A DNA stretch of 64,000 nucleotides from an uncultured Bacteroidales bacterium. Lineage in GTDB: Bacteria > Bacteroidota > Bacteroidia > Bacteroidales > VadinHA17. The translations under genes were made by a program, and so were the position numbers. Positions 3,331 through 54,836 of this stretch are shown in pieces. The DNA lies in assembly GCA_963756885.1 (NCBI GenBank), contig CAVWPG010000002.1:1977-65976 (forward strand), written 5' to 3'. The notes under the pieces were generated by a model. That model was not told the DNA's origin and did not search any database. It worked only from the letters and a program-made list of their open reading frames with translations. Position 1 is the stretch's first letter. Every line of letters begins with the position of its first letter.

Positions 3331-6300
3331 AGCATTGACTTTCTGTTTAACCTTATTATCTTAAGAGGCCCCGTCAGACCGGAAGGCTTCAGTGGCTTGT
3401 CCTTGTCAAGAAAATCGGTTATCGGGGATGATGTAAAAAGATTCTGCACCTTTCCGTACTGGATGAAATCGCCGATGAACCTGTTCCTGTATACATTCGC
3501 CACATCAACAACAAGAGTATTGCTGCCCTTTAGTGAACGGGTTATGTCGAGCATTGTACCTGGTTCCCAGATTTTCCCAAGCTCTGTTCCATTTAGCGAA
3601 ACGTCAGCCACAGCATTGAAATATCCCATATTCAGGAACACGCTCCCCCTGCCATCAACAAAATTGTCCGGCACCTCGAAATTTATAGTATAGACAGCAT
3701 TTCCTGCAAAAAAGCGGATATCAGGGTTATCGTAAGCAGAAAGTGGCTTTAATGCGGATATGTCGACCGATGGAACAGAGGCAGGATATCCTGCCCTGAA
3801 TTGTATGGAACCGCTGAAGCCGGTCAGTTCCAGCACCTGAGGCGCTTCATATTTATCCGTATGACTCTTGCCTCCATGGGTTGTAAATTCATATTCTCCT
3901 GATGACATGACGGTTACCTCCTTCCCATTCTTCCCGGCAGTTATAACGGGGACTTCTGAGTCCTCTTCGCCGACTGCAGCGGGAAATATCTGCTTCCCAT
4001 CCTTTCGGACAGCATCGATATAATCTGCTGCGATTCGCGACCTGAAGACAAACATGACTGACTGGAAAGGCTTAAATTCAAATGGGAGCCTTAAGATCCC
4101 CTTGTCAGTCTTGAAGATCATTGGCTGTATTATTTTACCAGTTTCAGGGTCCCATATTTCAGGTGTTTTATCCCCAACCCTGAATAGGCATTCCCTGTTA
4201 ACAACACTATCCAGCTGATTGGCAACAAAGTAGATATCCGTATCACCCATTTTCTTATGAATGAACTGGAATGTATTGTGCTCGTGCCGGTTGGTAAAGA
4301 AATCCGGACCAAGCCCGATCTCTTCGAATACCCGATCCAAAGGCATGCCCCAGAATACCTTTCCCTTGCCATAGTTGTTTTGGGTCGTTGTTTTGCCGTC
4401 GACCTTGCCCCAGATCCTGTCAGCCAGATCATGGAAGGCTGCCTTATTTTCTGTCAGGTCGCCCCTCGAAAGGGTTGAAACCGGTTTCGGTCCATAAACC
4501 ACAGCGCCTTCATTTACAAGGTTACCGATCAGTTTCAGCGTTTCATAATCCATATATGGAAATTCAGGAAGTCTCAGCAACGAATAGTCGCATGAACCAT
4601 TGAGCCTTAGCTTCCCATCCCTGACTGCAACCCTGTTTTTGAGAATATCGAAGTTGCATGCATTCAGCTGGTAACCGAAAGGGAGGGTTGTCGATTCTTT
4701 CTCAACAAAGAACTGAGGCAACTGATCGCCAAGGTAATAGAGCACATCCGGAGATACAGATCCTTTCTGAAGCAGGTATTGAATACGCGACTGGAAGTCG
4801 AACCATCCGGAAATATATTGCCAGTAGAGGTTATTCCTGTTAAAATGGGAAGCAAACTGCCCGAGTGTCATGCCCGGCTTCCTGTCGGTCGGCTGATGAA
4901 CATAGCTGTGCAGTATCATCTGGTTGATGCCTGAACAGAAAGCCCTGTCGCCGAAGGGTTTCAATTCCCATGGTGATTCGCTGTAATGTGCAGAACCTGT
5001 ATAAGCTTCCGAACCCAGGATCCCCTTGTCGTATCCTGTTACGGCACATGCCGGCATATTGAATTCCGGACCGGCTTTCGGCTCATACCTGACAAAATTA
5101 TTCCGGTCGGTCGATGACCAGAATTCATACATTGGCAGATCGACACAGCGGGTCGACTTCAGGATATCGAGAGGAGGATAAGAGCCATTGCCATATATCA
5201 CCTCGGCATGCATCTCAACCCTGTTCCTATGGCAAAGCTCGCTGAAGCACTCATAGTAATTCTGTTCAATAAGGTCTGCAATTGTTTTCCTGAAATCGTA
5301 AAGCACGGCTTCCGACTCCCCGGGTGAGTTCAATATCTCCCCGCAAAGGACAGGAAGGTAGGGGATCAGGCTATAGCCCCTGCGCTTTTCGAATTCCGAC
5401 GGAAAAGCAGCTGTCCAGTTCTGGAAAGCACATTCCCAGCTATCGATAAGTATAAATCTGAATGTATTGCCTGCATATTTTCCGGCGTGGTCAATCAATT
5501 TTTGTGGAAAGCTCCTGAAATGGAGCCCCATGGCAGCAGTATCCATCTTATCGCATTCCAGGCCCACTCCTTCCCTTGTAGCCGGGGAATTGGTGGCTCC
5601 GGTAGTGGTGTAGCCAAACCTAAGCACTGTCCAGCTTCCCGCTGGTGCATCCCACTGAAGCATCCCGTCGGGTGACATTTTGCCGGTAAGTTCTATGACT
5701 TGCTGTGAGGAGGGGAAATCCTTCCCGCTTCCGGAAGTGTAGAAAAGCTCCTCAGTCTCCGATGTTACCGAAGCGGTTTTCTCAGAGATGTAAGGTATGG
5801 ATGGGGAGAAGGATGCCTTTTCATTGTCTCTCAGCAGCCCTAGCTCTGATAGCTGCACGGGCGACTCATCGCGCCCATCCCCGTAACTGTCAAGGCTCAG
5901 GCGCGCAAAGCGGGCTGCAGTAAGGGGAACATCGACATATTCAGTTTTGTTGAGACCTTTAATACTGAAGCCCGATACTTTACGATATTCTTTGCCATTC
6001 TCTGATACGGAGAATGTATACGACGTCACAAAATCATTTGTATTGCCCCACATGAAGCTCCGATGGGGATATATTGCTATTTTATTGAATGTAAGCGGTT
6101 TTTGCAGAGAGATATCGAGGTAGTCGCCAGCCTTCATATCTGGTCCGCTGACCGGATTGCCATCGGTTACATAGGAGGCATCAGCCGTGTCGTTCAGCAT
6201 AACAACCGGCGATGATTGCAGGAACAGAGCTGGCTTTTCATCCGATCTGTATGCAACGAGTGCAACATCCCTGTAGAAATTATCAAGGCTGTAGGGCTTT

Positions 6301-8123: not shown

Positions 8124-8996
8124 CTATTTTGGCATTACAACGAATGGCTGAGCGTTAAGCCAGTCAATGCTCTTCTTGCAGCTTGTATACTCATCAAAGT
8201 TATATTCTTCAACCTCAACTATACCGTACTGCAAACCCGATTTGGCTGCATTCTCCCAGTATGCCTTGAAATCCATCATGCCGCTTGCCCCAACTTCCTC
8301 CTTATCCTTTATATGCCATAGTTCGAACCTGCCCGGATATTTATTGAAATAATCTACAGGATTAGCTCCTCCCATTACTGTCCAGTAGAGATCCATCTCG
8401 AATGTGACCTTGGCAGGGTCCATATTTGCAAGCATGAAATCGTATACAGTCTGGCCGTCAAGCTTTGTCGAGAATTCCATGTTGTGGTTATGATATCCGA
8501 AGCGGATCCCCTTTGCCTTGCATTTTTCTCCGATCGTATTGAAATAATCACAGTACATCTTCAGTGTATCCAGGCTTGTATATGCACCACTGCCCATGAA
8601 AGGCTGGACAAGATACAGGACACCCATCGAAGCATGAGCATCAATACAAGCATCCCACCAGGCCATTGTGGCTGCCATGTTGGCCGAATCGGGCAGAGCC
8701 TGTCCCACATGGGCGCTTAAAACCTTTAAACCATTTGATTCGCAAAGAGCTTTAAATGCAACCGGTTCCATGCCATAAACCTTCCCATCACTGTAACCTG
8801 CCGGTTCAACGAACTTGTATCCCATCTTAGCCACTTTGGCTATTGCACCTGGTACATCCCTGCCGATTGAATCGCGTATAGAATAGAGCTGCAGGCCGAT
8901 ATTCTTACCCGGGGCTTTGCATGAATTTAAGGCTGGTAACAGTAATCCTGCCATAATAATTAACAATACAATTGTAAAAAAGCTTCTTTTTTTCAT
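8124..8996 (-). CDS. sugar phosphate isomerase/epimerase (xylose isomerase-like TIM barrel), lipoprotein
   Basis: 290-aa ORF with signal plus lipobox LLLPALNSC. The body has IGLQLYSIRD, FGYHNH and WHIKD, typical of the AP endonuclease 2 / xylose-isomerase-like family. Confidence 0.75.
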   Translation of the reverse strand: MKKRSFFTIVLLIIMAGLLLPALNSCKAPGKNIGLQLYSIRDSIGRDVPGAIAKVAKMGYKFVEPAGYSDGKVYGMEPVAFKALCESNGLKVLSAHVGQALPDSANMAATMAWWDACIDAHASMGVLYLVQPFMGSGAYTSLDTLKMYCDYFNTIGEKCKAKGIRFGYHNHNMEFSTKLDGQTVYDFMLANMDPAKVTFEMDLYWTVMGGANPVDYFNKYPGRFELWHIKDKEEVGASGMMDFKAYWENAAKSGLQYGIVEVEEYNFDEYTSCKKSIDWLNAQPFVVMPK

Positions 8997-9037
8997 TTTG
9001 ATCAGGTTTTTAAAATTTTTTCTAAGATAGCAATAAT

Positions 9038-9875
9038 TTATATTCCCAGGATTCTTTTTGCATTCCCGCCCCTCAAAAGAGCCTTAACCGAACCGTCTGC
9101 CTCCTCATCCGTCATCGATTCAATCCGCAGTCGTCCGGTTACATAATCAAGTATGGGAGAGTGTGTTCCGAAGGCAAATTTGTCCGTACCAAACCTCTTC
9201 AGCAATTCTGCAAGTGTATTCTCTCCCCTGATCTCTCTGCCTGAAGTATCAAACAGGATGTCGGTCTTCCTTAAAAGTGTAAGCTCTTCATCATTCAGAT
9301 CCAGGCTGTTGGCAAGGTTTACTATTATATATTTTGCGTCCGGAACCGCCCTGATAACCGGCAATATATTCCTGAGGTTCCACTCCTCCGAAAATGATAT
9401 CCTTTTTTACAGGAGAATTATAATCGAAAAGTGGTATATCGAGCCACGACCGCTGCCTGCTGTCGACCATGCGCATATCGAAGGCAACGGGCAGGCCGCG
9501 GTCGCGGGCCATCCTGACCAGCTCTGCGAGGGCCGGATCTGTCATCCCATAATCGTGATACTGCGGATAGAGCCTGATCCCCTTCATTCCCATTGAGGAT
9601 ATGCAGACTTCGAGATCATCCTTCCATCCTGCATAGATCGGATTGATAACAGCAAAGGGGATCAGCCTGGTGCCGAACTTTTTATCCGACATGAGCTCAT
9701 TGCGGAGCTCTTCATTGGCCGACTGCGTATTTTTATAGAATATGCCGTTGATGTTGCTGACAACCGACATGTCGACGCCAAAGCAGTCCATCCTGTCAAC
9801 GAGCAGGGAACAGGTATTATACTGCAGCTGCTTGAAAGGCCAGTGCCCTACATATGTATTTATATCAACCACCAT
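9038..9875 (-). pseudogene. amidohydrolase-fold hydrolase interrupted by a 1-nt frameshift in an A6 (plus-strand T6) run at 9403-9408
   Basis: ORFs 9291-9875 and 9038-9364 are the N- and C-terminal halves of one amidohydrolase (MVVDINTYVGHWPF ... GTHSPILD). The second frame is open upstream as far as the homopolymer (KRISFSEEWNLRNILPVIRAVPDAKYIIVN). Confidence 0.7.
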
Positions 9876-10797
9876 AGCGGCCTCCTTTCATCAATACACT
9901 GTTATAATTATCCCTGAAGATCTTTTTCTTCTGATCCTCTGTGGCTCCGGAGGCGAGTATCTTTCCAACACCATGATGATAGCAATTGTCCGTTCCGAAA
10001 AAGATCCGGTCCTCGCCAAGGTACCTTATCGCAAAATCAATAATATTCTCCTCGTTATTGCTTCCGCCTGTATCTGCATATATATTCGGACAGCCTGCGA
10101 GGGTCTTGCATTCATATTCCCAGTCGCCTCCCCCTGCAATATGAGCAAAATGGAAAGTTGCTTCAGGATATCTTCTTGCAGCATCAACCATGTCGTCAGG
10201 GGTTGTTGTATTGGGAAACCTTCCGATATCATACTTCATGCGGTATCCGGCCATGCCCAGCTGACAGAATGTATGCATGAAAACAATCATCTTCAGCCCG
10301 ATCAGCTTCTCTATAATGGGATAATATACGGGATCGTTGATCTTTGCCTGAGTATACCCCTTGTAACCAATCAGCCCAAGGTCCACGCACCTCTTCATCT
10401 CATCCATGGACTCCTTCCTGTAGAGCGGATTAAGGGTAAAAAAGCCGATGAACCTGTCGGGGTGCTTCCTGACGGCACTTATCACTATGTCATTGTTCTT
10501 CCTTACCTGCTCCGGACCTTCCGGATCACTGCCCGAGAAATTAGTTACCGGCATCGATATCTGCATCTTCTCTATTCCAAGCCTGTCAGCAATTTCAAGT
10601 TGTTTTTCAAGATCACCTTCAGGATGACAGTGAGCATCTATCTTCCTGTATTTCATAACATCCTTCATTACATCATACGAAGACAGAGCCGGCTTCATGC
10701 TCCCCTCGCCGCGGGAAAAATTCCCTGCGAGCATGATCCCGGCTGCCGAAAGGGATGTTTCCGACAGGAATTTCCTCCGGTTTATAGCTTTTGACAT
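9865..10797 (-). CDS. amidohydrolase-fold hydrolase with twin-arginine (Tat) signal
   Basis: The ORF track gives 9865-10875. The internal start MSKAINRRKFLSETSLSAAGIMLAG (Tat motif) at 10797 is more plausible. Contains the IDAHCHP metal motif. Overlaps the downstream gene by 11 nt. Confidence 0.7.
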   Translation of the reverse strand: MSKAINRRKFLSETSLSAAGIMLAGNFSRGEGSMKPALSSYDVMKDVMKYRKIDAHCHPEGDLEKQLEIADRLGIEKMQISMPVTNFSGSDPEGPEQVRKNNDIVISAVRKHPDRFIGFFTLNPLYRKESMDEMKRCVDLGLIGYKGYTQAKINDPVYYPIIEKLIGLKMIVFMHTFCQLGMAGYRMKYDIGRFPNTTTPDDMVDAARRYPEATFHFAHIAGGGDWEYECKTLAGCPNIYADTGGSNNEENIIDFAIRYLGEDRIFFGTDNCYHHGVGKILASGATEDQKKKIFRDNYNSVLMKGGRYGG

Positions 10798-14340: not shown

Positions 14341-14348
14341 TACATTTG
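14341..14348 (+). promoter_or_regulatory. Bacteroidota-type -7 promoter box TACATTTG (consensus TAnnTTTG) for the ilv-leu leader
   Basis: Exact match to TAnnTTTG, ending 14 nt upstream of the leader ORF start. Confidence 0.5.
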
Positions 14349-14362
14349 CATTCTGATTTTAC

Positions 14363-14431
14363 ATGATTATGTTGAAAAACACTTTAATATATATTATTAC
14401 CCTCGTGCTTCTCATTGCCCTGCGCAAATGA
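14363..14431 (+). CDS. putative ilv-leu leader peptide MIMLKNTLIYIITLVLLIALRK
   Basis: 22-codon ORF in which 12 of 22 codons are Ile/Leu/Val. Lies between a -7 box and an intrinsic terminator, just upstream of ilvD. Confidence 0.65.
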   Translation: MIMLKNTLIYIITLVLLIALRK

Positions 14432-14466
14432 ACCGGGAATAATATGTATTACTATAAATATACAGA

Positions 14467-14495
14467 AGCTTTCCGGGAAACCGGGGAGCTTTTTT
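14467..14495 (+). terminator. intrinsic terminator (attenuator) upstream of ilvD
   Basis: AGCTTTCCGG-GAAA-CCGGGGAGCT, a 10-bp stem with two G-U pairs and a GNRA loop, followed by TTTTT. Ends 16 nt before the ilvD ATG. Confidence 0.7.
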
Positions 14496-14511
14496 AATAT
14501 AAAGAAAGAAT

Positions 14512-19957: not shown

Positions 19958-19978
19958 TTATTGAAAATAAGTGAAAAT

Positions 19979-21472
19979 ATGAACGATAAGGTCATAATTT
20001 TTGATACCACCCTCAGGGATGGGGAACAGGTGCCGGGTTGCCAGCTGAATACGATTGAGAAAATTGAGGTCGCTCAGGCACTCGAAGCTTTGGGAGTGGA
20101 TGTTCTGGAAGCAGGGTTCCCTGTGTCGAGCCCTGGTGATTTCAAATCTGTTGTGGAAATCTCCAGGGCAATTACAAACCCGGTGATCTGTGCGCTCACA
20201 AGGGCTGTCAAGAAGGATATTGAAGTTGCGGCTGAAGCTCTGCAGTATGCCAAAAAGAAAAGAATACATACTGGCATAGGTGTTTCTCCCTTTCATATTC
20301 AATATAAAATAAAGACTACCCCGGAAGAGATCATTAAAAGAGCTGCCGATGCTGTCAAATATGCAAAAAAATTCGTCGAGGATGTTGAATTCTATGCTGA
20401 AGATGCCGGAAGAAGCGAGAACGAATACCTTGCAAAAGTTATTGAAGCTGTCATAAAGGCAGGGGCAACAGTTGTTAACATACCCGATACAACAGGCTAT
20501 TGCCTGCCAGAGGAATATGGCCAGAAAATTAAATACCTTAAGGAGAATGTTCCAAATATCCATAAGGCAACTATCTCGACCCATTGCCATAACGATCTTG
20601 GGATGGCCACGGCGAACACAATGATGGGCATCCTTAACGGGGCACGCCAGGTAGAGGTAACAATAAACGGTATCGGGGAGAGGGCAGGCAATACATCGCT
20701 CGAAGAGATTGCCATGATACTAAAGAGTCATCATAACCTCAACTTCCAGACCGAGATCAACACAAAGCTGATTTACAGCACAAGCAGGCTCGTCTCCACC
20801 CTCATGAGCATGCCTGTACAGGCGAACAAAGCCATTGTAGGACGCAACGCCTTTGCCCACTCGTCGGGCATACACCAGGACGGCGTACTGAAAAACAGGG
20901 AGAATTACGAGATAATCGATCCCGTTGAGGTCGGAATCAAGGAATCGTCTATAATCCTCACAGCCCGCAGCGGAAGGGCAGCACTTAACCACAGGCTCGA
21001 ACTGCTCGGATTCAAATTCGGCAAGGAGGAGATCGATGATATCTATCACCGGTTCCTGCTTCTGGCCGACAAGAAGAAGGATATCAACGATGAGGATATA
21101 AGGATCCTTGCAGGCGAGGTCTTCAACGGTGAAAAATCGATGAAGCTCGATACACTGCAGGTCGCCTGCGGAAAGACAATGATCCCTGTTGCTACGGTAG
21201 GAATAAAGATAAACGGAGAGCTCCATCTCTCGACTGCTTCCGGTAACGGACCCATTGATGCAGCCTTCACAGCAGTAAAACAGCTGATTAGCAAGACCGT
21301 TCACCTCGAGGAATTCCTTATCCAGGCAATTACGAAGGGGAGCGATGACCTGGGTAAGGTGCATATCCAGGTCGAGCATGAAGGGAGAACCTTTTACGGC
21401 TTTTCGGCCAATACTGATATAATAACAGCTTCGGTTGAAGCATTTATAGATGCAATAGCAAAAATTAATTAA
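19979..21472 (+). CDS. leuA: 2-isopropylmalate synthase
   Basis: [23 protein letters not shown] and a C-terminal LeuA dimerisation/regulatory domain. The ORF track starts at TTG 19961; ATG 19979 ([17 protein letters not shown]) is more plausible. Confidence 0.9.
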
Positions 21473-23052: not shown

Positions 23053-23655
23053 ATGGCAAAAGTCAAATTTGATCTTCTCGAATCAACCTGTGTTCCGCTT
23101 CCCCTGGAAAACGTGGATACCGATCAGATTATCCCTGCAAGGTTCCTCAGCGCAACCTCGAGAGAGGGATTCGGGAACAACCTGTTCCGCGACTGGAGAT
23201 ACCTCAAAACAGGCGAACCGAATACTGCATTTGTTCTGAACGATCCCACCTATACCGGCAAGGTTCTTGTTACGGGAAAGAATTTCGGCAGCGGCTCAAG
23301 CCGCGAGCATGCCGTATGGGCAATATTCGACTATGGATTCAGGGCAGTCGTTTCGAGCTTTTTCGCAGATATTTTCATGAATAATTCCCTCAATAACGGA
23401 CTCCTTCCCATAGTGATCTCCGAGGATCTTCTGAAGAGGCTTCACGAACAGATCCGGAAGGATCCGTCGACAAAGGTCAGAATTGATCTCGAAAAACAAA
23501 AATTTACAATACTTCCTACGGGTGAGAGTGTAATATTTGCAATAAATCCATACAAGAAAGAGTGCCTTCTCAAGGGACTTGATGATATAGATTTTCTTCT
23601 CGGCATGAAGGATATGATTACAAGTTATGAAAACAATAAAAGTCTTGTAAAATGA
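23053..23655 (+). CDS. leuD: 3-isopropylmalate dehydratase small subunit
   Basis: 200 aa. NVDTDQIIPARFL and GKNFGSGSSREHA motifs. Confidence 0.95.
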   Translation: MAKVKFDLLESTCVPLPLENVDTDQIIPARFLSATSREGFGNNLFRDWRYLKTGEPNTAFVLNDPTYTGKVLVTGKNFGSGSSREHAVWAIFDYGFRAVVSSFFADIFMNNSLNNGLLPIVISEDLLKRLHEQIRKDPSTKVRIDLEKQKFTILPTGESVIFAINPYKKECLLKGLDDIDFLLGMKDMITSYENNKSLVK

Positions 23656-25220
23656 GAGTTGAAATAATGGATACTACCCTCCGGGACGGTGAACAGACCC
23701 AGGGAGTATCATACTCACCGCTCGAAAAACTCCATATAGCCAAACTTCTTCTCAAGGACCTGAGGGTCGACAGGATTGAAGTGGCTTCGGCAAGGGTATC
23801 TGCCGGTGAGTTCCAGGCGCTGAGCAAAATAACCGAGTGGGCGCGCCATAATAATCTTCACAGGAAAGTGGAGGTTCTCGGATTCGTCGACGGGGATGTC
23901 TCCCTCAACTGGATCAACGATGCCGGAGGAAAGGTTGTAAACCTTCTCTGCAAGGGGTCGCTCAGGCATCTTGAAAAGCAGCTTAGAAAAACACCGGAGC
24001 AGCATGTCAGGGATATCAGGGATATAATAGAAAAAGCAGAGGCGCTCGACATCCAGGTAAATATTTATCTCGAGGACTGGTCGAACGGGATGATCAATTC
24101 GGAGGATTATGTCTTCTATATGCTGGAATCGCTGAAGGATGACAATATAAAGCGATATATGCTCCCCGACACCCTGGGCATTTTAAACCAGGAGCAGACA
24201 TTTGAATTCTGTAAAAAGATAGTGGATCGCTATCCGGGGCTTCACTTTGATTTTCATGCCCACAACGACTATGACCTGGCGGTGGCAAATGTCTACTCTG
24301 CAGTGAAGGCGGGAGTAAAAGGGATTCATACAACCGTAAACGGCCTGGGAGAAAGAGCCGGCAATGCACCCCTCTCCAGCGTGATAGGCATAATGCGCGA
24401 TCAGCTCCATGCCGATACCGATATAAACGAATATGAAATCACAAAGGTGAGCAAGATAGTGGAGACCTTCAGCGGCATCCGCATCCCTGTGAATAAGCCG
24501 GTGATCGGGGAAAATGTCTTCACCCAGACATCGGGTGTGCACGCCGATGGCGACAGCAAGGACAATCTTTACTATAACAACCTGATGCCGGAACGCTTCG
24601 GCCGCAAGAGGAAATACGCCCTGGGGAAACAATCGGGCAAGGCAACCGTAAGGAAAAACCTTGAGGAATTCGGGCTCTTCCTCAGCCCTGAATCCCTTAC
24701 GAAGGTGACCCAGAGAGTAATAGAACTAGGCGACAAAAAAGAGAATGTGACTACGGAAGACCTGCCATTCATCATAGCCGATGTGCTCGGCAATGACAAA
24801 AGCAATTACAAGATCTTCATAAAGAACTACTCCCTGTCCCTCTCCTATGGACTGAAGCCATCAGCAAATATTCAGGTCGAGATCGACGGGCACCTTTACC
24901 AGGAAACATCCTCGGGCGACGGGCAGTACGATGCTTTCATGAAGGCCCTGAGAAACATATATGACAAGCTCGGGAAACATTATCCCGCCCTTACCGATTA
25001 TGAGGTCACAATACCACCCGGAGGCGCTACCGATGCGCTTGTTGAGACTATAATCACATGGGATTACAGGGGAAAGGAATTCAGAACGAAGGGACTCGAT
25101 GCCGACCAGACCGAATCGGCAATAAAGGCAACGGAGAAGATGCTCAACATAATCGAGGGGCTGAGCGAGACAGAGTACAAGACGGAACACCCGGAATTAC
25201 ACAGCGTGAAATATCATTAA
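23652..25220 (+). CDS. cimA: (R)-citramalate synthase (Leptospira CimA-type member of the IPMS/homocitrate synthase family)
   Basis: 522 aa. [85 protein letters not shown] and IPPGGATDALVET closely match my recollection of characterised CimA. ATGA overlap with leuD. Confidence 0.75.
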   Translation: MRVEIMDTTLRDGEQTQGVSYSPLEKLHIAKLLLKDLRVDRIEVASARVSAGEFQALSKITEWARHNNLHRKVEVLGFVDGDVSLNWINDAGGKVVNLLCKGSLRHLEKQLRKTPEQHVRDIRDIIEKAEALDIQVNIYLEDWSNGMINSEDYVFYMLESLKDDNIKRYMLPDTLGILNQEQTFEFCKKIVDRYPGLHFDFHAHNDYDLAVANVYSAVKAGVKGIHTTVNGLGERAGNAPLSSVIGIMRDQLHADTDINEYEITKVSKIVETFSGIRIPVNKPVIGENVFTQTSGVHADGDSKDNLYYNNLMPERFGRKRKYALGKQSGKATVRKNLEEFGLFLSPESLTKVTQRVIELGDKKENVTTEDLPFIIADVLGNDKSNYKIFIKNYSLSLSYGLKPSANIQVEIDGHLYQETSSGDGQYDAFMKALRNIYDKLGKHYPALTDYEVTIPPGGATDALVETIITWDYRGKEFRTKGLDADQTESAIKATEKMLNIIEGLSETEYKTEHPELHSVKYH

Positions 25221-26417: not shown

Positions 26418-26425
26418 TATTTTTG
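26418..26425 (+). promoter_or_regulatory. -7 promoter box TATTTTTG for the his leader
   Basis: Exact TAnnTTTG match, ending 17 nt upstream of the leader ATG. Confidence 0.5.
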
Positions 26426-26442
26426 CATCATATTTTAAGAAA

Positions 26443-26502
26443 ATGAATTACAGGACATCACATCATTATCATTTTGAATCTTGCTGTCAGGCGAGGAGAT
26501 AG
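26443..26502 (+). CDS. putative his leader peptide [19 protein letters not shown]
   Basis: 19-codon ORF with 3 His codons within 4 positions (26461-26472). Its 3' end contains TCAGGCG (26487-26493), which duplicates the terminator 3' arm. Confidence 0.5.
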
Positions 26503-26531
26503 TGATATGTTCAAATATTAAAGTATCATAA

Positions 26532-26560
26532 ACCCGTCTGAGCAGATCAGGCGGGTTTTT
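26532..26560 (+). terminator. intrinsic terminator (attenuator) upstream of hisG
   Basis: ACCCGTCTGA-GCAGA-TCAGGCGGGT, a 10-bp stem with one G-U, followed by TTTTTGATTT. About 40 nt before the hisG ATG. Confidence 0.7.
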
Positions 26561-34092: not shown

Positions 34093-34100
34093 TATTTTTG
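34093..34100 (+). promoter_or_regulatory. -7 promoter box TATTTTTG for the Phe/Tyr leader
   Basis: Exact TAnnTTTG match, ending 20 nt upstream of the leader ATG. Confidence 0.5.
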
Positions 34101-34120
34101 CAAGCTAAGAAAACAGACAG

Positions 34121-34186
34121 ATGAATATTGTGTACAATTATTTTATCTCCTTTTATTACTTCTTTTTTTACTTTAAAAAGAGATAG
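34121..34186 (+). CDS. putative Phe/Tyr leader peptide MNIVYNYFISFYYFFFYFKKR
   Basis: 21-codon ORF with 6 Phe and 5 Tyr codons (11 of 21), followed by an intrinsic terminator and pheA. Confidence 0.65.
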   Translation: MNIVYNYFISFYYFFFYFKKR

Positions 34187-34225
34187 GGGATTTTTGTATA
34201 CAGATAAATAAAATTTATATGAAGC

Positions 34226-34255
34226 AAGGGTCCCGGAAAGGGGCCCTTCTTTTTT
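34226..34255 (+). terminator. intrinsic terminator (attenuator) upstream of pheA
   Basis: AAGGGTCCC-GGAAA-GGGGCCCTT, a 9-bp stem with one G-U, then CTTTTTT. Ends about 15 nt before the pheA ATG. Confidence 0.7.
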
Positions 34256-39695: not shown

Positions 39696-39905
39696 ATACA
39701 ATGCCATCCCGGCCAGTATAGCAAGGGCTCTTAACCTTCTATTCAAATAGCAGTTCAATCAGACATATCACAGAGAGCCCGGGAGAGGGCAATCGATTTT
39801 CAAGCAAAATGCTGATATTGATTTCAGTTGCCAAGGAGAAACGGTCATTGAATCATGATTTTTTAGAAAAATTCCGATTTTTTAATTATAATTTAAAAAT
39901 TTATT

Positions 39906-39913
39906 TATTTTTG
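39906..39913 (+). promoter_or_regulatory. -7 promoter box TATTTTTG for the Trp leader
   Basis: Exact TAnnTTTG match, ending 29 nt upstream of the leader ATG. Confidence 0.5.
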
Positions 39914-39942
39914 TAGCTGTACATAAAAAAAGTAAATACCGA

Positions 39943-40005
39943 ATGAGATTGAGAATGTTTTACGATTGGTCCTGGCGCAGCTTGAATTATAATGCTGTGA
40001 AATAG
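39943..40005 (+). CDS. putative Trp leader peptide MRLRMFYDWSWRSLNYNAVK
   Basis: 20-codon ORF with two Trp codons (39967-39969, 39973-39975). Its last three sense codons GCTGTGAAA (39994-40002) are perfectly complementary to TTTCACAGC (40048-40056) inside the terminator. Confidence 0.7.
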   Translation: MRLRMFYDWSWRSLNYNAVK

Positions 40006-40037
40006 GCCGTTGTATAACATTTATTTGATACTGATAT

Positions 40038-40066
40038 AAGGCACGCTTTTCACAGCGTGCCTTTTT
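40038..40066 (+). terminator. intrinsic terminator (attenuator) upstream of trpB2
   Basis: AAGGCACGCT-TTTCAC-AGCGTGCCTT, a perfect 10-bp stem, followed by TTTAATTT (the T-run continues out of the 3' arm). About 40 nt before the trpB2 ATG. Confidence 0.75.
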
Positions 40067-40104
40067 AATTTGCCATCATTAAACAACCATAAAAAATCAG
40101 AAAA

Positions 40105-41481
40105 ATGGAAAAGTTCAGAAAGATCATCCTCAGTGAAAATGAAATGCCCAGGCAATGGTACAACATCCTTGCAGATATGCCGAACAAACCTCTGCCTCCC
40201 CTCAATCCGGCAACCGGCAAACCTGTCGGGCCGGAAGACCTGGCTCCCGTTTTTCCCATGGAGCTCATAAAGCAGGAGGTATCCACGGAGAGATATATAG
40301 ATATTCCGGATGAGGTGCTTGACCTCTACAGGACTTACCGCCCCTCTCCCCTGTTCAGGGCAGTATCGCTCGAAAAAGCACTCGGGACAAAAAGCAAAAT
40401 TTACTACAAGTATGAAGGTGGCAACTATTCAGGATCTCATAAGGCCAATACGGCAATAGCCCAGGCTTACTATAACAAGCAGGAGGGTGTGCGGCGGATA
40501 ACGACCGAAACGGGTGCCGGACAGTGGGGAAGTGCCATGAGCTTCGCATGTCAGCATTTCGGGCTGGAACTGCTTGTATTCATGGTAAAGGTAAGCTATA
40601 ACCAGAAACCCGGACGCAAGCTTCTGATGAACACATATAATGCAAGGGTAGTGCCTTCACCAAGCACTATGACAGTGGCCGGACGGAAAGTACTGGAGCT
40701 GGATCCCGATTCACCCGGAAGCCTTGGCATAGCAATTTCAGAGGCAATGGAGGTGGCCGTACAGGATCCTTATACAAAGTACTCACTGGGCAGTGTCCTA
40801 AATCATGTCATCCTGCATCAGACAATCATCGGACAGGAAGCTCTCCTGCAGATGGAAAAAACGGGCGATTACCCTGACGTGGTTATCGGATGCTTCGGCG
40901 GAGGCTCCAACTTTTCCGGCATCGCCTTCCCCTTCCTTCGCGAAAATCTGACCAAGGGTAAAAAGACAAGGCTCCTCACACTCGAACCTGCCTCCTGCCC
41001 CAAGCTAACAAAAGGCAAATTCATGTACGATTTCGGTGATTCGGCAGGGATGACCCCTCTCCTTCCGATGTACACCCTGGGTCACAATTTCATCCCGGAA
41101 AAGATCCACGCCGGGGGACTGCGCTACCATGGCGCCGGCGTACTGGTAAGCCAGCTTCTAAGGGATGGCTTCATTGAGGCAAGAGCCAAGCTTCAGAGAG
41201 AATGCTTTGAAGCAGGAGTGCTCTTTGCCCGTACTGAAGGGATACTGCCTGCCCCCGAATCAAACTATGCTATTGCCGGAGCTCTTGATGAAGCAAGAAA
41301 AGCCGACCTGGAAGGGGTGTCGAAAACAATCCTTTTCAACCTCAGCGGACATGGACATTTCGATATCTCAGCCTACGAGAAATTCTTCGAAGGCAACCTG
41401 CCCGACCATGAGCTGACAACAGCAGAAGTCGAGGAAGCCATTTCGAAGATAGAACTGCCCACACTGATAAAAATAGATTAA
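40105..41481 (+). CDS. trpB: tryptophan synthase beta-subunit-like protein, TrpB2 class (long form, stand-alone)
   Basis: 458 aa. N-terminal MPRQWYNILADMPNKPLPPLNP extension typical of TrpB2, GSHKANTA (PLP lysine), TETGAGQWGSA and GGGSNFSG. No trpA nearby. Confidence 0.85.
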   Translation: MEKFRKIILSENEMPRQWYNILADMPNKPLPPLNPATGKPVGPEDLAPVFPMELIKQEVSTERYIDIPDEVLDLYRTYRPSPLFRAVSLEKALGTKSKIYYKYEGGNYSGSHKANTAIAQAYYNKQEGVRRITTETGAGQWGSAMSFACQHFGLELLVFMVKVSYNQKPGRKLLMNTYNARVVPSPSTMTVAGRKVLELDPDSPGSLGIAISEAMEVAVQDPYTKYSLGSVLNHVILHQTIIGQEALLQMEKTGDYPDVVIGCFGGGSNFSGIAFPFLRENLTKGKKTRLLTLEPASCPKLTKGKFMYDFGDSAGMTPLLPMYTLGHNFIPEKIHAGGLRYHGAGVLVSQLLRDGFIEARAKLQRECFEAGVLFARTEGILPAPESNYAIAGALDEARKADLEGVSKTILFNLSGHGHFDISAYEKFFEGNLPDHELTTAEVEEAISKIELPTLIKID

Positions 41482-51128: not shown

Positions 51129-52349
51129 ATGACATCACGAGAACGGATCATAGCATCCATAAATCATATTCAGCCCGATAAAGTACCGATCGATCTTGGC
51201 AGCTCCACAGTAACCGGGATCTCAGCCATAGCCTGTAACAAACTGAAGAAGCACCTTGGGATAACCAGCCGGACAAGGGTATTTGATGTTGTCCAGCAGC
51301 TTGCGGAGGTAGATATGGAGATTGTCAATATGCTCGGAGTCGATGCCCTCGATATCAACAGGGTATCTGCTGATGGCAATGACTGGTACGATGTGGTGCT
51401 GTCCGACGGCAGCAGGGCGCAGTATCCCTCATGGTTCAGGCCGGTAAGGTCGGAAGATGGTTCCATGTACACTACCGACGGGAACGGAACAGTTATATCA
51501 AGGAAAGCGGCGGATGCAACATTTTTCGACCAGATGCATTTTCCATGGGAGGATGGATATCCGGAAAATCCTGACGATCTGAAGGAAGCACTGAAGAAAA
51601 TAAGCTGGGTCGTTCATTCCCATTCGTCAAACCTGAATGAAACAGAGCTCAGGAACAAGCTGATGACCCTGAAGGAATCGACCGGTAAAGCTCTTGTAAT
51701 GTCGGGCGGGGTGAAGCTTCTCGAGCTTGGCTTCTTCATCCGGAGAATGGACAATTTCCTGATGGACCTTATGATAGGTGACGAAAAGCTCTCCGGATTG
51801 CTCGACAGTCTTGTCGATATGCACCTTTCCGGACTGGAGAAAAAATGCCGGAATGTCGGGGATATCGTTGATGTTATAAGATTCGGCGATGATCTTGGCA
51901 TGACATCCGGTCCCTTCATGGATCTGGCCACATTCAGGAAATATCTGAAGCCCAGGTACAAGATACTGTGTGATTACGTCAGGAAGCACAGCAGCATGAA
52001 GATCTTCATGCATTCATGCGGAAGCATAAGGCAATTCATACCCGACCTGATCGAAGTCGGCTTCGATATCCTGAACCCTGTCCAGACCAACTGTTACGGC
52101 ATGGATCTCGTGGCGCTGAAGAATGAATACGGCAGGGACATTACCTTCTGGGGCGGAGGGGTCGATACATCTTCCGTCATCAGCAGGGGGACCCCGCAGG
52201 ATATAAGGAGGGATGTGCTGATCAGATGCGAGATCCTCTCGAGGGATGGAGGATTTGTCTTCGCTCCCATTCATAATATCCTCTCGGAAGTACCCCCTCA
52301 GAATGTTATGGCAGCATATAATGCCGTACGGGAATTCAATGAAGGGTAG
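51129..52349 (+). CDS. uroporphyrinogen decarboxylase (URO-D) family protein, non-HemE paralogue A
   Basis: 406 aa. FGDDLGMTSGPFM, MHSCGSI, ILNPVQ and FWGGGVD are typical of the URO-D/MtaA-like TIM barrel. Lacks the HemE N-terminal RQAGR motif. No signal peptide. Confidence 0.75.
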   Translation: MTSRERIIASINHIQPDKVPIDLGSSTVTGISAIACNKLKKHLGITSRTRVFDVVQQLAEVDMEIVNMLGVDALDINRVSADGNDWYDVVLSDGSRAQYPSWFRPVRSEDGSMYTTDGNGTVISRKAADATFFDQMHFPWEDGYPENPDDLKEALKKISWVVHSHSSNLNETELRNKLMTLKESTGKALVMSGGVKLLELGFFIRRMDNFLMDLMIGDEKLSGLLDSLVDMHLSGLEKKCRNVGDIVDVIRFGDDLGMTSGPFMDLATFRKYLKPRYKILCDYVRKHSSMKIFMHSCGSIRQFIPDLIEVGFDILNPVQTNCYGMDLVALKNEYGRDITFWGGGVDTSSVISRGTPQDIRRDVLIRCEILSRDGGFVFAPIHNILSEVPPQNVMAAYNAVREFNEG

Positions 52350-52369
52350 GAACGGGTCGCGACCCGAGC

Positions 52370-53431
52370 CTACAATAATTCTCTTCTTCTGATCTCCTTC
52401 GTCGCCCCGATCATAGCCATAAACCCGTCAACCGGAATATATCCGGGAATGGAGTTACCGGATCCGAGCCCAAAGCCTTTTGCCTTATTCCTGTAAACTG
52501 TACCGTTCTCTAAAACAGTTCTGTAAACTTCATCCGGAGAAGAAAGTATCAGAAGATTCAGGTCAAATCCTCCGAAAAGACCAATCTTATTGGAATATTT
52601 ATCGATCCAATCGATAAAGGGAGCAATCTGATCCTCATTGGAATGCTTGGCATCGATGCCCAGGCCTATGATCTCATCCATCAGCGGAAATATGCAGCCG
52701 CAGCTGTGCAGCAGGAACTTTTTACCCGAAGAATGAACGAGGTCAATAACCCTTTTGTACTGAGGAAGAATATGTTGTCTTATGATTTCAGGCTCCAGCA
52801 AAGTGGATGTCTTATGCCCGAGATCGTCTCCCATCCTGTAAAAGACGAACATGTCGTGATAATTTCCTATAACCCAGCTCCAGAGCTCAACCCAAAGATC
52901 ACCTATTCTTATGAAAAGGTCCCGGAACAGATCCGGATCCAGACACTGCATCACGCATAGTTGTTCAAAACCGACAAGATCCCGGCTGGCTTCGAAAATA
53001 CCATATCCGCATCCACCATAAGCTTTCATGCCGTCAGGAAGGGTCTTTCTTATCGCATCAAAATGAGGAATATATTTTTCCCTGAATATCCCCGGAATAT
53101 CCTCCCATGGATATTTTTCAAAATCATCCCTCGTCTGAATGGGTCCGGCCATCCCTCCCATTATTGCTCCATGTCCGGGGAAGATGTCACATATTGCTGC
53201 CTCAAAATCAAATCCGTCGTATGTCATATCTCTCCAGAAGCCGGTCACTTTCCTGTAATAACCGATCAGTTCGTCAGCAGTCAGGTTCACGGGATTTATC
53301 TCCTCTCCAAGAGCTTTGGAAATGAATGGGGGATCGATATGATGCTCATAGAGCGGTAACCTGTCAGGCCGCTGATTATTGAGCACCTGAAGGAGGTTGT
53401 GGTAATCGGGTAGGAACGAAGTGTGTTTCAT
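52370..53431 (-). CDS. URO-D family protein, divergent paralogue B
   Basis: 353 aa. MGDDLGHKTSTLL, LHSCGCIFPLMDEII and GLGSGNSIP. Lacks the RQAGR motif. Confidence 0.7.
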   Translation of the reverse strand: MKHTSFLPDYHNLLQVLNNQRPDRLPLYEHHIDPPFISKALGEEINPVNLTADELIGYYRKVTGFWRDMTYDGFDFEAAICDIFPGHGAIMGGMAGPIQTRDDFEKYPWEDIPGIFREKYIPHFDAIRKTLPDGMKAYGGCGYGIFEASRDLVGFEQLCVMQCLDPDLFRDLFIRIGDLWVELWSWVIGNYHDMFVFYRMGDDLGHKTSTLLEPEIIRQHILPQYKRVIDLVHSSGKKFLLHSCGCIFPLMDEIIGLGIDAKHSNEDQIAPFIDWIDKYSNKIGLFGGFDLNLLILSSPDEVYRTVLENGTVYRNKAKGFGLGSGNSIPGYIPVDGFMAMIGATKEIRRRELL

Positions 53432-53456
53432 GCATCAGAAATATTTACTCAATGGT

Positions 53457-53558
53457 CATAGCTAGCGCGGATTTGCAATCCGTGCTTTAAAATATTGGCT
53501 CTGCTGGCCCCAATTATGCTAGCCGGCGCCGATTTGCAATCGGGGCCTTAAACATTGT
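53457..53558. repeat. two tandem hairpin units GCTAGC..C(G/C)GATTTGCAATC(C/G)G..TTAAA(A/C)ATTG
   Basis: Hairpins CGGATTTGCAATCCG (53468-53482) and CCGATTTGCAATCGG (53529-53543), about 61 nt apart, between two minus-strand URO-D genes. Confidence 0.8.
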
Positions 53559-53576
53559 TGCATTATCACAATCCTT

Positions 53577-54836
53577 CTATCTGAACTCATCCACCGCCTC
53601 AAACATTGCCATTATATTTTCCGCAGGAACATCGGGCAGTATATTATGAACGGTATTGAACACGTATCCTCCTCCCCTGCTGAATACATCTATATTATGC
53701 CTCACATGGTCCTTCACCTGCTGCGGCGTGCCCTGGTTGAGAACGCTCTGTGTATTCACCCCTCCTCCCCAGAAAGTCAGATCGGCACCAAATTCCCTCT
53801 TGAGCTTTTCTGCATCCATGTTTACGGCATTGATCTGCACCGGGTTGATGATCTCGAACCCGGCATCTATCAGTCCGGGAATAAGCTCATATATGCCGCC
53901 GCAAACATGCAGCATGGTATGGGCCGATGAATTGGCCTTCACATAATCGCACATCATCCTGTGCCGCGGTCCGAAAAATTCCTCATAGATCTCCCTTGGC
54001 ATGAATGGACCGTTATTTGTTCCAAGGTCATCTCCGAATTTGATGATATCGACTAGATCCCCTACCGATTCACAGATCTTTGCAATGAACTCCATGTGGC
54101 CGCTGACAAGCTGATCGAGCAGCCTGTGGACATTCACAGGATCAAGGTAGAGATCCATAAGGAAATTATCTATCCGTCTGAGAAAGGTGCCCCATTCGAA
54201 GAGGTTGCATCCGATGCCTATGAGAAATGCCTTGTCGGATCGTGCCCGTTCCCTGATTATGGTTTCGCGAAGCATCTTCCAGAAATCCTTTTCATCCATC
54301 CAGTCGAAGGGGGTGAATCCGAACCCTCCCCAGATCACCCTTGTCATCTCACGGCTGATGCCTTTATAATCTGAAGGATAACCGTCAATATATGGAAATA
54401 TTATCTGATCGAAGAAGGTTGCTGCCGCTGGCATCTTGCCAATGTATTCACCGGTTTTGCCGGGTGCGAGCCAGCTGCCATCGGGTTGTATTTCAGGATT
54501 GAACCATTTGGGGTAAAGTGCCGGATAGCCTTTGATAAGTTCCAGCTCCTGCCAGTAATCTTCCGCGGTATTGAAGAAACGTCCGGCATCCACAACATCC
54601 ACCCCGAAATAGTCGAGGAATTCCATGTCAGGCTGTACAACCTCCTGGATCACATCATAGACATGAGTCTTCAGGTGGGGCTTGCCGATATGGCGGGCCA
54701 GGTTCTGCCAGGCCACTACAGATACGCCCGAACTGGGCGTGGCCCCGATATCCACCGGGAGCCTGTCGGGTTGCCTGTGGCTAATTGCGGCAAGGATTCG
54801 TTCTCGTGATGTCATAATATCCATATTTATTGGCAT
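53577..54836 (-). CDS. URO-D family protein, paralogue C (roughly half of residues identical by eye to paralogue A over the conserved C-terminal half)
   Basis: 419 aa. FGDDLGTNNGPFM, LHVCGGI, IINPVQ and FWGGGVN. The start may be the internal MTSRERILAAISHRQPDRLP at 54815, which parallels paralogue A. Confidence 0.75.
   Translation of the reverse strand: MPINMDIMTSRERILAAISHRQPDRLPVDIGATPSSGVSVVAWQNLARHIGKPHLKTHVYDVIQEVVQPDMEFLDYFGVDVVDAGRFFNTAEDYWQELELIKGYPALYPKWFNPEIQPDGSWLAPGKTGEYIGKMPAAATFFDQIIFPYIDGYPSDYKGISREMTRVIWGGFGFTPFDWMDEKDFWKMLRETIIRERARSDKAFLIGIGCNLFEWGTFLRRIDNFLMDLYLDPVNVHRLLDQLVSGHMEFIAKICESVGDLVDIIKFGDDLGTNNGPFMPREIYEEFFGPRHRMMCDYVKANSSAHTMLHVCGGIYELIPGLIDAGFEIINPVQINAVNMDAEKLKREFGADLTFWGGGVNTQSVLNQGTPQQVKDHVRHNIDVFSRGGGYVFNTVHNILPDVPAENIMAMFEAVDEFR

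Follow-up and report, generated by a model that had tools for sequence, protein, structure and literature searches.

Background

Tryptophan (Trp) peptide leaders of the Bacteroidetes are known from Bacteroid-trp, which Weinberg 2010 (Genome Biol 11:R31, PMC2864571) describes as a presumed peptide leader for Trp, with trpB and trpE under its control and with 'a loosely conserved hairpin'. The present work concerns a leader element and the stand-alone trpB2 gene behind it, located at 39906-41481 of a 64-kb DNA stretch from an uncultured Bacteroidales bacterium (contig CAVWPG010000002.1; the whole stretch is referred to as the window). A sequence-only reading of this DNA had proposed a 'textbook' Trp-codon attenuator at this site. 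The word is apt, as such elements had already been described in Bacteroidetes, and the novelty therefore lies mainly in the target gene.

The function of TrpB2 paralogues has been debated for about two decades, and they have been regarded as indole scavengers, as O-phosphoserine-dependent synthases, or as enzymes with another role. Sub-micromolar affinity for indole and the use of O-phosphoserine as a substrate are cited for TrpB2 enzymes in PMC11917138, and a role in indole salvage is cited for Thermococcus kodakarensis TrpB2 in PMC11085991. The Bacteroides thetaiotaomicron homologue BT_RS23500 rescued an Escherichia coli delta-trpA strain via cross-fed indole (PMC11535334). Most bacterial species with a non-operon trpB2 also possess an operon trpB1, and some archaea contain trpB2 only (PMC1854888). 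No report of a leader of this kind on trpB2 was found in the literature searched (TrpB2 with attenuation; TrpB2 with Bacteroidetes).

A probable leader-peptide attenuator upstream of trpB2

The element is very probably a ribosome-mediated leader-peptide transcription attenuator, which ties the expression of the monocistronic trpB2 to the supply of charged tRNA-Trp. All of its parts lie on the plus strand. The leader open reading frame (ORF) at 39943-40005 comprises 20 codons and encodes MRLRMFYDWSWRSLNYNAVK. Its regulatory Trp codons are located at 39967-39969 and 39973-39975, UGG thus being codons 9 and 11, and its stop codon is at 40003. Upstream of the ORF, the sequence TATTTTTG at 39906-39913 matches the consensus of the Bacteroidetes-type -7 promoter box, TAnnTTTG. 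Downstream, an intrinsic terminator (40038-40068) was identified by terminator scan and folding. Its sequence AAGGCACGCT-TTTCAC-AGCGTGCCTT at 40038-40063 forms a 10-bp stem (40038-40047/40054-40063) with the loop TTTCAC and is directly followed by the T-run. The distance from the terminator to the ATG of trpB2 is 37 nt. The stretch GCTGTGAAA (39994-40002) matches the reverse complement of 40048-40056 exactly, and a perfect leader-terminator complement of at least 9 nt occurred in 29 of 5000 dinucleotide shuffles. The 156-nt leader region folds with a z of -4.45 compared with shuffles. When the sequence was re-read, the -7 box, the leader ORF, the Trp codons, the terminator and the 9-nt complement reported by the sequence-only reading were all found in their places.

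These parts can be combined into three helices. Region 1 (UGGUCCUGGCGCAGC, 39967-39981) consists of the Trp codons plus CGCAGC and is the partner of region 2 in the 1:2 anti-antiterminator hairpin. Region 2a (AUGCUGUGAAA, 39992-40002) provides the 5' strand of the outer anti-terminator helix and has region 1 as its alternative partner; the 3' strand of this helix, 40048-40058, comprises the loop of the terminator together with the first five nucleotides of its 3' arm. Region 2b (GGCCGUUGUAU, 40005-40015) is the 5' strand of the inner anti-terminator helix and pairs with 40034-40044, which includes part of the terminator 5' arm. In the minimum free energy fold of the window, the 1:2 hairpin is formed by 39976-39981/39994-39999 and 39968-39974/40003-40008. 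Clustered Trp codons, a terminator, an anti-terminator exclusive with it, and a 1:2 hairpin containing the regulatory codons are thus all present, as in a leader-peptide attenuator.

The 1:2 hairpin, the anti-terminator and the terminator are mutually exclusive, and each of them is supported by comparison. For this purpose, the window and 54 species-level relatives were aligned (alignment A1, 55 sequences). The terminator (columns 110-122/127-138) is paired in 97.3% of the cells and shows double changes at seven pairs. The 1:2 hairpin as a whole is 84% paired, with 97.6% in its core (columns 42-47/60-65) and 72.3% in the extension that contains the Trp codons (columns 33-39/69-75), and double changes occur at two pairs in each part. 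At pair 37/71 of the extension, 17 sequences have C-G and 15 have G-C, a difference that follows the identity of the middle codon (Ser on the one hand, Trp or Arg on the other). In the outer anti-terminator helix (columns 58-68/122-132), 87% of the cells are paired and five pairs carry double changes, including G-C to A-U at 65/125 and 60/130 and A-U to U-A at 66/124 and 67/123. Its covariation score was reached by none of 500 shuffles, and every slid control collapses. For the inner anti-terminator helix (columns 72-77/111-115), 93.8% of the cells are paired, with double changes at one pair.

The anti-terminator of 9 bp proposed by the sequence-only reading is accordingly a real and covarying pairing, but it forms no more than the outer core of a larger, composite structure of about 21 bp that holds the terminator 5' arm as well. 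Its attenuator scheme holds as well, although it omitted the 1:2 hairpin with the Trp codons, which the model needs and which is well supported. In relatives with short leader peptides, conservation at the RNA level extends beyond the leader stop codon, which places the constraint there on the RNA and not on the peptide. Two distant loci with unrelated terminators, L068 and L069, form the same composite pairing; the segments complementary to loop and 3' arm measure 12 bp in L068 and 8 bp in L069. In L073, the leader pairs with the terminator 5' arm and the loop.

Conservation across Bacteroidales

The relatives originate from one scan of species-representative genomes with the window TrpB2 protein, which yielded 80 loci (numbered with the prefix L), one genome per species. 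Of the 60 evaluable Bacteroidales trpB2 loci, 59 have a short leader ORF that encodes W-x-W or WWW, with an intrinsic terminator behind it. The 56 closest loci encode a TrpB2 with 73-92% identity and are nearly all labelled as Bacteroidales or Bacteroidota metagenome-assembled genomes (MAGs). The element is present in all of them apart from L012 and L014, i.e., in 54; L014 is not evaluable because its upstream sequence is cut by the contig end. The leaders of these 54 relatives start with ATG (GTG in two), and the peptides contain W-x-W, then R, C or H, then S. From the beginning of their terminators to the trpB2 start, the distance is 55-83 nt, with a median of about 66 nt. Throughout the alignment, the start codon (ATG or GTG) is in frame with both TGG codons (55 of 55 sequences), and the TGG columns are invariant. 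Five distant Bacteroidales loci (L061, L067, L068, L069, and L073 from Butyricimonas synergistica DSM 23225) have WWW leaders with wholly different terminator sequences. The leader element was not found at the Cytophagales, Saprospiraceae, Chitinophagaceae and other non-Bacteroidales trpB2 loci of the scan.

A leader and complementary segments that were not conserved upstream of trpB2 had been named as what would speak against attenuation. Instead, they are conserved in 54 related species and in five distant Bacteroidales lineages, with compensatory changes in the anti-terminator. The proposal of a Trp-codon attenuator thus gains strong comparative support from the conserved leader, terminator and complements and from these changes.

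L012 is a natural deletion variant. At this locus (5898-6000) the whole leader ORF is gone, and the terminator hairpin (loop GTTCAT) stands directly after the aroA stop codon, so that both the usual promoter box and the Trp-sensing part are absent from this trpB2.

Synteny with the aro operon is common, yet the leader stays with trpB2 beside other neighbours, namely the his operon, pheA alone, cytochrome biogenesis genes, or PFK. No other trp gene was found within 6 kb of trpB2 in the relatives whose flanking genes were scanned. A location of trpB2 inside a trp operon was considered for the distant relatives L068-L070, L075 and L064 and rejected, as the neighbours are unrelated (peptidase S51, CutC, FixG/FixH, hexapeptide transferase, HAD hydrolase, methyltransferase).

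A TAnnTTTG box is present 5' of the leader ATG in 52 of the 55 aligned sequences. Between the terminator and trpB2 it occurs in none of the 55, so there is no second promoter of that type, and trpB2 transcription should depend on read-through. The -7 box of the sequence-only reading is therefore conserved in relatives, but the spacing of 29 nt between box and ATG in the window is atypical, as most relatives have 4-6 nt. In 48 of the 55, no more than 4-6 nt separate the G of the box from the leader ATG; L056, L016 and L044 show distances of 27-41 nt. Equally tight spacing is seen in the Bacteroid-trp seed sequences. Judged by the promoter geometry of Bacteroides, the leader mRNA would be leaderless or nearly so where the spacing is 4-6 nt.

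Two further loci are mentioned for their own sake. L042 (CAVTMS010000010.1) is titled as a 'Candidatus Bathyarchaeota archaeon' MAG and shows the Bacteroidales synteny aminotransferase-tyrA-DAHPS/CM-aroA-leader-trpB2-NIPSNAP-DUF6807 with a TrpB2 of 85% identity; the archaeal title is probably a binning or labelling error. In the Butyricimonas locus, sub-threshold matches of about 23 bits to Thr_leader and Leu_leader were obtained at L073:8421-8544, just 5' of an aspartate kinase gene (8553-9899) and a diaminopimelate-decarboxylase-like gene. This site may be a further leader-peptide attenuator.

Folding with a positioned ribosome and proposed mechanism

The effect of the ribosome was modelled by folding the full window transcript with a mask, a 31-nt footprint placed on either Trp codon or on the stop codon. 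The unmasked transcript forms the 1:2 hairpin and the terminator (-44.6 kcal/mol). With the mask on either Trp codon, the terminator is fully replaced by the composite anti-terminator (-22 to -23.6 kcal/mol), which consists of an outer helix of 11 bp (39992-40002/40048-40058) and the inner helix 40005-40015/40034-40044. The inner helix occupies seven of the ten bases of the terminator 5' arm, and the composite structure sequesters this arm, the loop and half of the 3' arm. With the mask on the stop codon, the terminator forms. The masked folds of the window hence behave as the sequence-only reading had suggested, namely that a ribosome at the stop codon blocks the anti-terminator and one stalled at the Trp codons leaves it free.

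A ribosome covers about 30 nt of mRNA. The stop codons of the leaders are distributed over several columns between 51 and 81, the commonest being 81, 51 and 57, and the window has its stop in column 69. Given this footprint, every stop position in columns 51-81 lets a terminating ribosome cover some of region 2 (columns 58-68).

Several observations weigh against the attenuator. When full-length transcripts are folded at equilibrium, the terminator is still preferred by 51 of the 55 sequences with the second Trp codon masked and by 52 with the first. The end pairs 59/131 and 68/122 of the anti-terminator are unpaired in about half of the sequences, and the inner anti-terminator helix is conserved with almost no covariation. 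The assignment of the -7 box as a putative promoter is by consensus match. Transcription-translation coupling in Bacteroidota is putative here. The sequencing runs containing part of the window stretch are three soil DNA metagenome runs, with no RNA run among them. Lastly, no Rfam family matches the window's copy at the gathering score.

In most relatives, the terminator stem is longer than that of the window. Since equilibrium folds keep the terminator despite the masked Trp codon in most relatives, the decision of the switch must be kinetic. A thermodynamic switch for the whole family was considered and rejected: full-length masked folds fail to switch most relatives, and only co-transcriptional truncation does so. 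In transcripts ending at the 3' strand of the anti-terminator, with the mask on a Trp codon, the anti-terminator is the minimum free energy structure in 54 of 55 cases; for 42 of the 55 unmasked transcripts, the nascent terminator is favoured instead.

In the proposed mechanism, we infer that transcription starts at the -7-box promoter and that the 20-codon leader ORF is translated. With plentiful Trp-tRNA, the ribosome would reach the stop codon at 40003 and sit on region 2 (39992-40015), the terminator (40038-40063) with its T-run would form, and transcription would end about 40 nt before trpB2. If no ribosome is engaged, region 1 with the Trp codons would pair with region 2 in the 1:2 hairpin, and the terminator would form as well. 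When Trp-tRNA is scarce, the ribosome would stall at the UGG codon at 39967 or 39973 and cover region 1. Region 2, thereby freed, would pair with the emerging terminator 5' arm, the loop and the first bases of the 3' arm to give the composite anti-terminator, in kinetic competition with the terminator, and RNA polymerase would read through into trpB2. By analogy with characterised TrpB2 enzymes, the protein would then most likely make tryptophan from indole and serine or O-phosphoserine.

The trpB2 gene and its surroundings

The gene trpB2 (40105-41481, plus strand) encodes a stand-alone TrpB-like pyridoxal 5'-phosphate (PLP) enzyme of 458 amino acids. In profile searches, the ORF scored 706.1 bits with the TrpB-like PLP enzyme model NF009057 (cut-off 366) and 621.1 bits with TIGR01415 (cut-off 518.85), a model of the same type. 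With the canonical trpB model TIGR00263 it reached only 130.6 bits, which is below the cut-off of 392.45. The closest solved structures are the Sulfolobus TrpB2 chains 6hul_B, 4qys_B and 6hte_B, and the PLP-lysine motif GSHK of the window protein aligns with the Sulfolobus TrpB2 structures. As judged from these matches, the ORF is a bona fide TrpB2.

The window represents an amino-acid biosynthesis super-cluster encoded on a single strand, with the leader and trpB2 at its end. The first block has the order ilvD-ilvB-ilvN-ilvC-leuA-leuC-leuD, followed by a second gene resembling isopropylmalate synthase (IPMS) and by leuB. The second block is hisG-D-C-B-H-A-F-IE, and the third is pheA-aminotransferase-tyrA-DAHPS/chorismate mutase-aroA, then the leader, then trpB2. 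Convergent unrelated genes lie 3' of trpB2 (NIPSNAP, DUF6807, APC permease). The sequence-only reading had described a lone trpB2 without trpA nearby, and indeed no trpA, E, G, D, C or F, nor any other trp gene, is found among the window ORFs of at least 150 amino acids. The genes 3' of 14341-14505, 26418-26560 and 34093-34255 are ilvD, hisG and pheA, respectively.

The extra IPMS/citramalate-synthase-like gene at 23652-25220 has HMGL-like and LeuA_dimer domains and is located between leuD and leuB; leuA itself is at 19961-21472. At 51129-54836, three adjacent paralogues of the URO-D family with 406, 353 and 419 amino acids are encoded, two on the minus strand and one on the plus strand. These might be methyltransferase-type URO-D homologues rather than enzymes of the haem pathway.

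Alternative explanations

Some alternatives concern the role of the enzyme. TrpB2 may add to the output of a de novo pathway, or tryptophan may be supplied by this enzyme alone. One possibility, which is unlikely, is that the attenuator works as described and TrpB2, rather than being a salvage enzyme, is the organism's only tryptophan synthase beta subunit and completes a de novo pathway with its remaining genes at other sites of the genome. The location of trpB2 at the end of an ilv-leu/his/phe-tyr super-cluster is in line with this, as are the archaea that have trpB2 alone (PMC1854888), but an operon trpB1 is also present in most bacteria with a non-operon trpB2 (PMC1854888), and the B. thetaiotaomicron homologue acted as an indole scavenger (PMC11535334). 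In addition, the Bacteroides entries examined in the alignment of Bacteroid-trp, which come from B. vulgatus (NC_009614) and gut-metagenome contigs, have a canonical TrpB1-type gene behind the leader.

Rather doubtful is the idea that soil and fen Bacteroidales of this type possess no de novo tryptophan branch at all and that the attenuated TrpB2 is their sole route to tryptophan. These bacteria would then be obligate consumers of environmental indole, with a salvage enzyme that is induced when tRNA-Trp charging falls. TrpB2 occupies the end of the super-cluster, where a trp operon might be expected.

Other alternatives concern the mechanism. That the leader ORF senses Trp by a route other than the competition between anti-terminator and terminator, e.g., by Rho-dependent polarity or mRNA stability, is highly improbable. 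The equilibrium folds, which in most relatives keep the terminator with a stalled ribosome, suggest that the anti-terminator alone may not suffice, but in co-transcriptional folding 54 of the 55 sequences show the expected switch. Furthermore, the covariation specifically keeps region 2 pairing with the terminator loop and 3' arm, and the unrelated terminators of L068 and L069 come with their matching 12- and 8-bp complements.

Scarcely credible is a mere terminator or insulator of the upstream pheA-tyrA-aroA operon with an untranslated short ORF and incidental complementarity: the terminator scan shows no obvious separate terminator between the aroA stop (39658) and the leader, and L012 retains the same hairpin directly after aroA with the leader gone, but all 55 sequences keep the start and TGG codons unchanged and in frame, compensatory changes occur in both the anti-terminator and the 1:2 helix, the leader accompanies trpB2 at loci without an upstream aro operon, and the -7 box stands 5' of the leader in 52 of 55 sequences and never 3' of the terminator.

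Attenuation by leader translation is thus retained as the explanation of the element. Regulation by the charging of tRNA-Trp is in keeping with an enzyme that yields tryptophan. A conserved leader that would sense this charging and control trpB2 alone is regulatory evidence that the cell treats TrpB2 as a source of tryptophan, in agreement with the use of cross-fed indole by the B. thetaiotaomicron homologue (PMC11535334).

Comparison with known systems

The characterised TrpB2 enzymes, namely those of Thermotoga maritima, Sulfolobus (TrpB2a/TrpB2i; PDB 4QYS, 6HUL, 6HTE), T. kodakarensis and B. thetaiotaomicron (BT_RS23500), share the family models and closest structures with the window enzyme. 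According to PMC11535334, PMC11917138 and PMC11085991, they are stand-alone enzymes with high indole affinity, O-phosphoserine use and indole salvage, whereas the activity of the window enzyme is predicted. In contrast to the window trpB2, control by a Trp leader-peptide attenuator is not described for them in the literature examined.

Rfam searches at the gathering score matched nothing in the window and, in 11 of the loci, only a tRNA. The Bacteroid-trp model RF01692 (gathering score 49 bits) has no match in the window's copy at E up to 10; in relatives, it gives full-length, sub-threshold matches of 37.5 bits (L067) and 36.8 bits (L054). Since RF01692 misses the subfamily of trpB2 leaders at gathering, current annotation pipelines leave it unlabelled. 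A weak full-length match to RF00513 was found at 39961-40068 (22 bits, E = 0.044), below the gathering score of 41. A T-box riboswitch was detected neither in the window at gathering nor in 39700-40200 at E up to 10. With a covariance model derived from A1, the divergent WWW subfamily is found at 41-54 bits, and the window has a single strong match. The same model also gives a weak match of 21 bits at 14364-14505, 5' of ilvD.

From its sequence, the element is read as a diverged member of the Bacteroid-trp kind. Both occur in the same phylum. In each, a TAnnTTTG box is followed within a few bases by a short ORF with two or three UGG codons, after which CGC or the like often comes next, and an intrinsic terminator stands behind the ORF. 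In the Bacteroid-trp alignment, the 3' part of the leader likewise pairs with the loop of the terminator and with the beginning of its 3' arm, e.g., GUCGUGA/UCACGAC and GUCGUAAG/CUUACGAC. The window element fits the description of Bacteroid-trp: it is a Bacteroidetes leader located 5' of a Trp-synthesis gene, its short ORF contains at least two UGG codons, and it has a terminator hairpin. The two differ in the gene behind the leader. The five non-Bacteroides entries examined (Pedobacter, Algoriphagus, Microscilla and two others) precede trpE, and entries of the B. vulgatus type precede a TrpB1-type gene, whereas the sole regulated gene here is a stand-alone trpB2. Unlike the present element, Bacteroid-trp has no anti-terminator model in its published description. 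The trpB2 leader family offers Bacteroidetes Trp leaders a well-resolved three-helix model with covariation, in which the anti-terminator invades the terminator loop and 3' arm.

With the enterobacterial trpL (RF00513), the element shares the four-segment logic of 1:2 hairpin, anti-terminator and 3:4 terminator, with Trp codons in segment 1, then CGC, and a stop codon nearby. Unlike trpL, its Trp codons have one codon between them, and its anti-terminator does not end in the 5' arm of the terminator but crosses the loop into the 3' arm. It also belongs to another phylum, would initiate translation without a Shine-Dalgarno sequence, and has trpB2 as its target instead of trpEDCBA.

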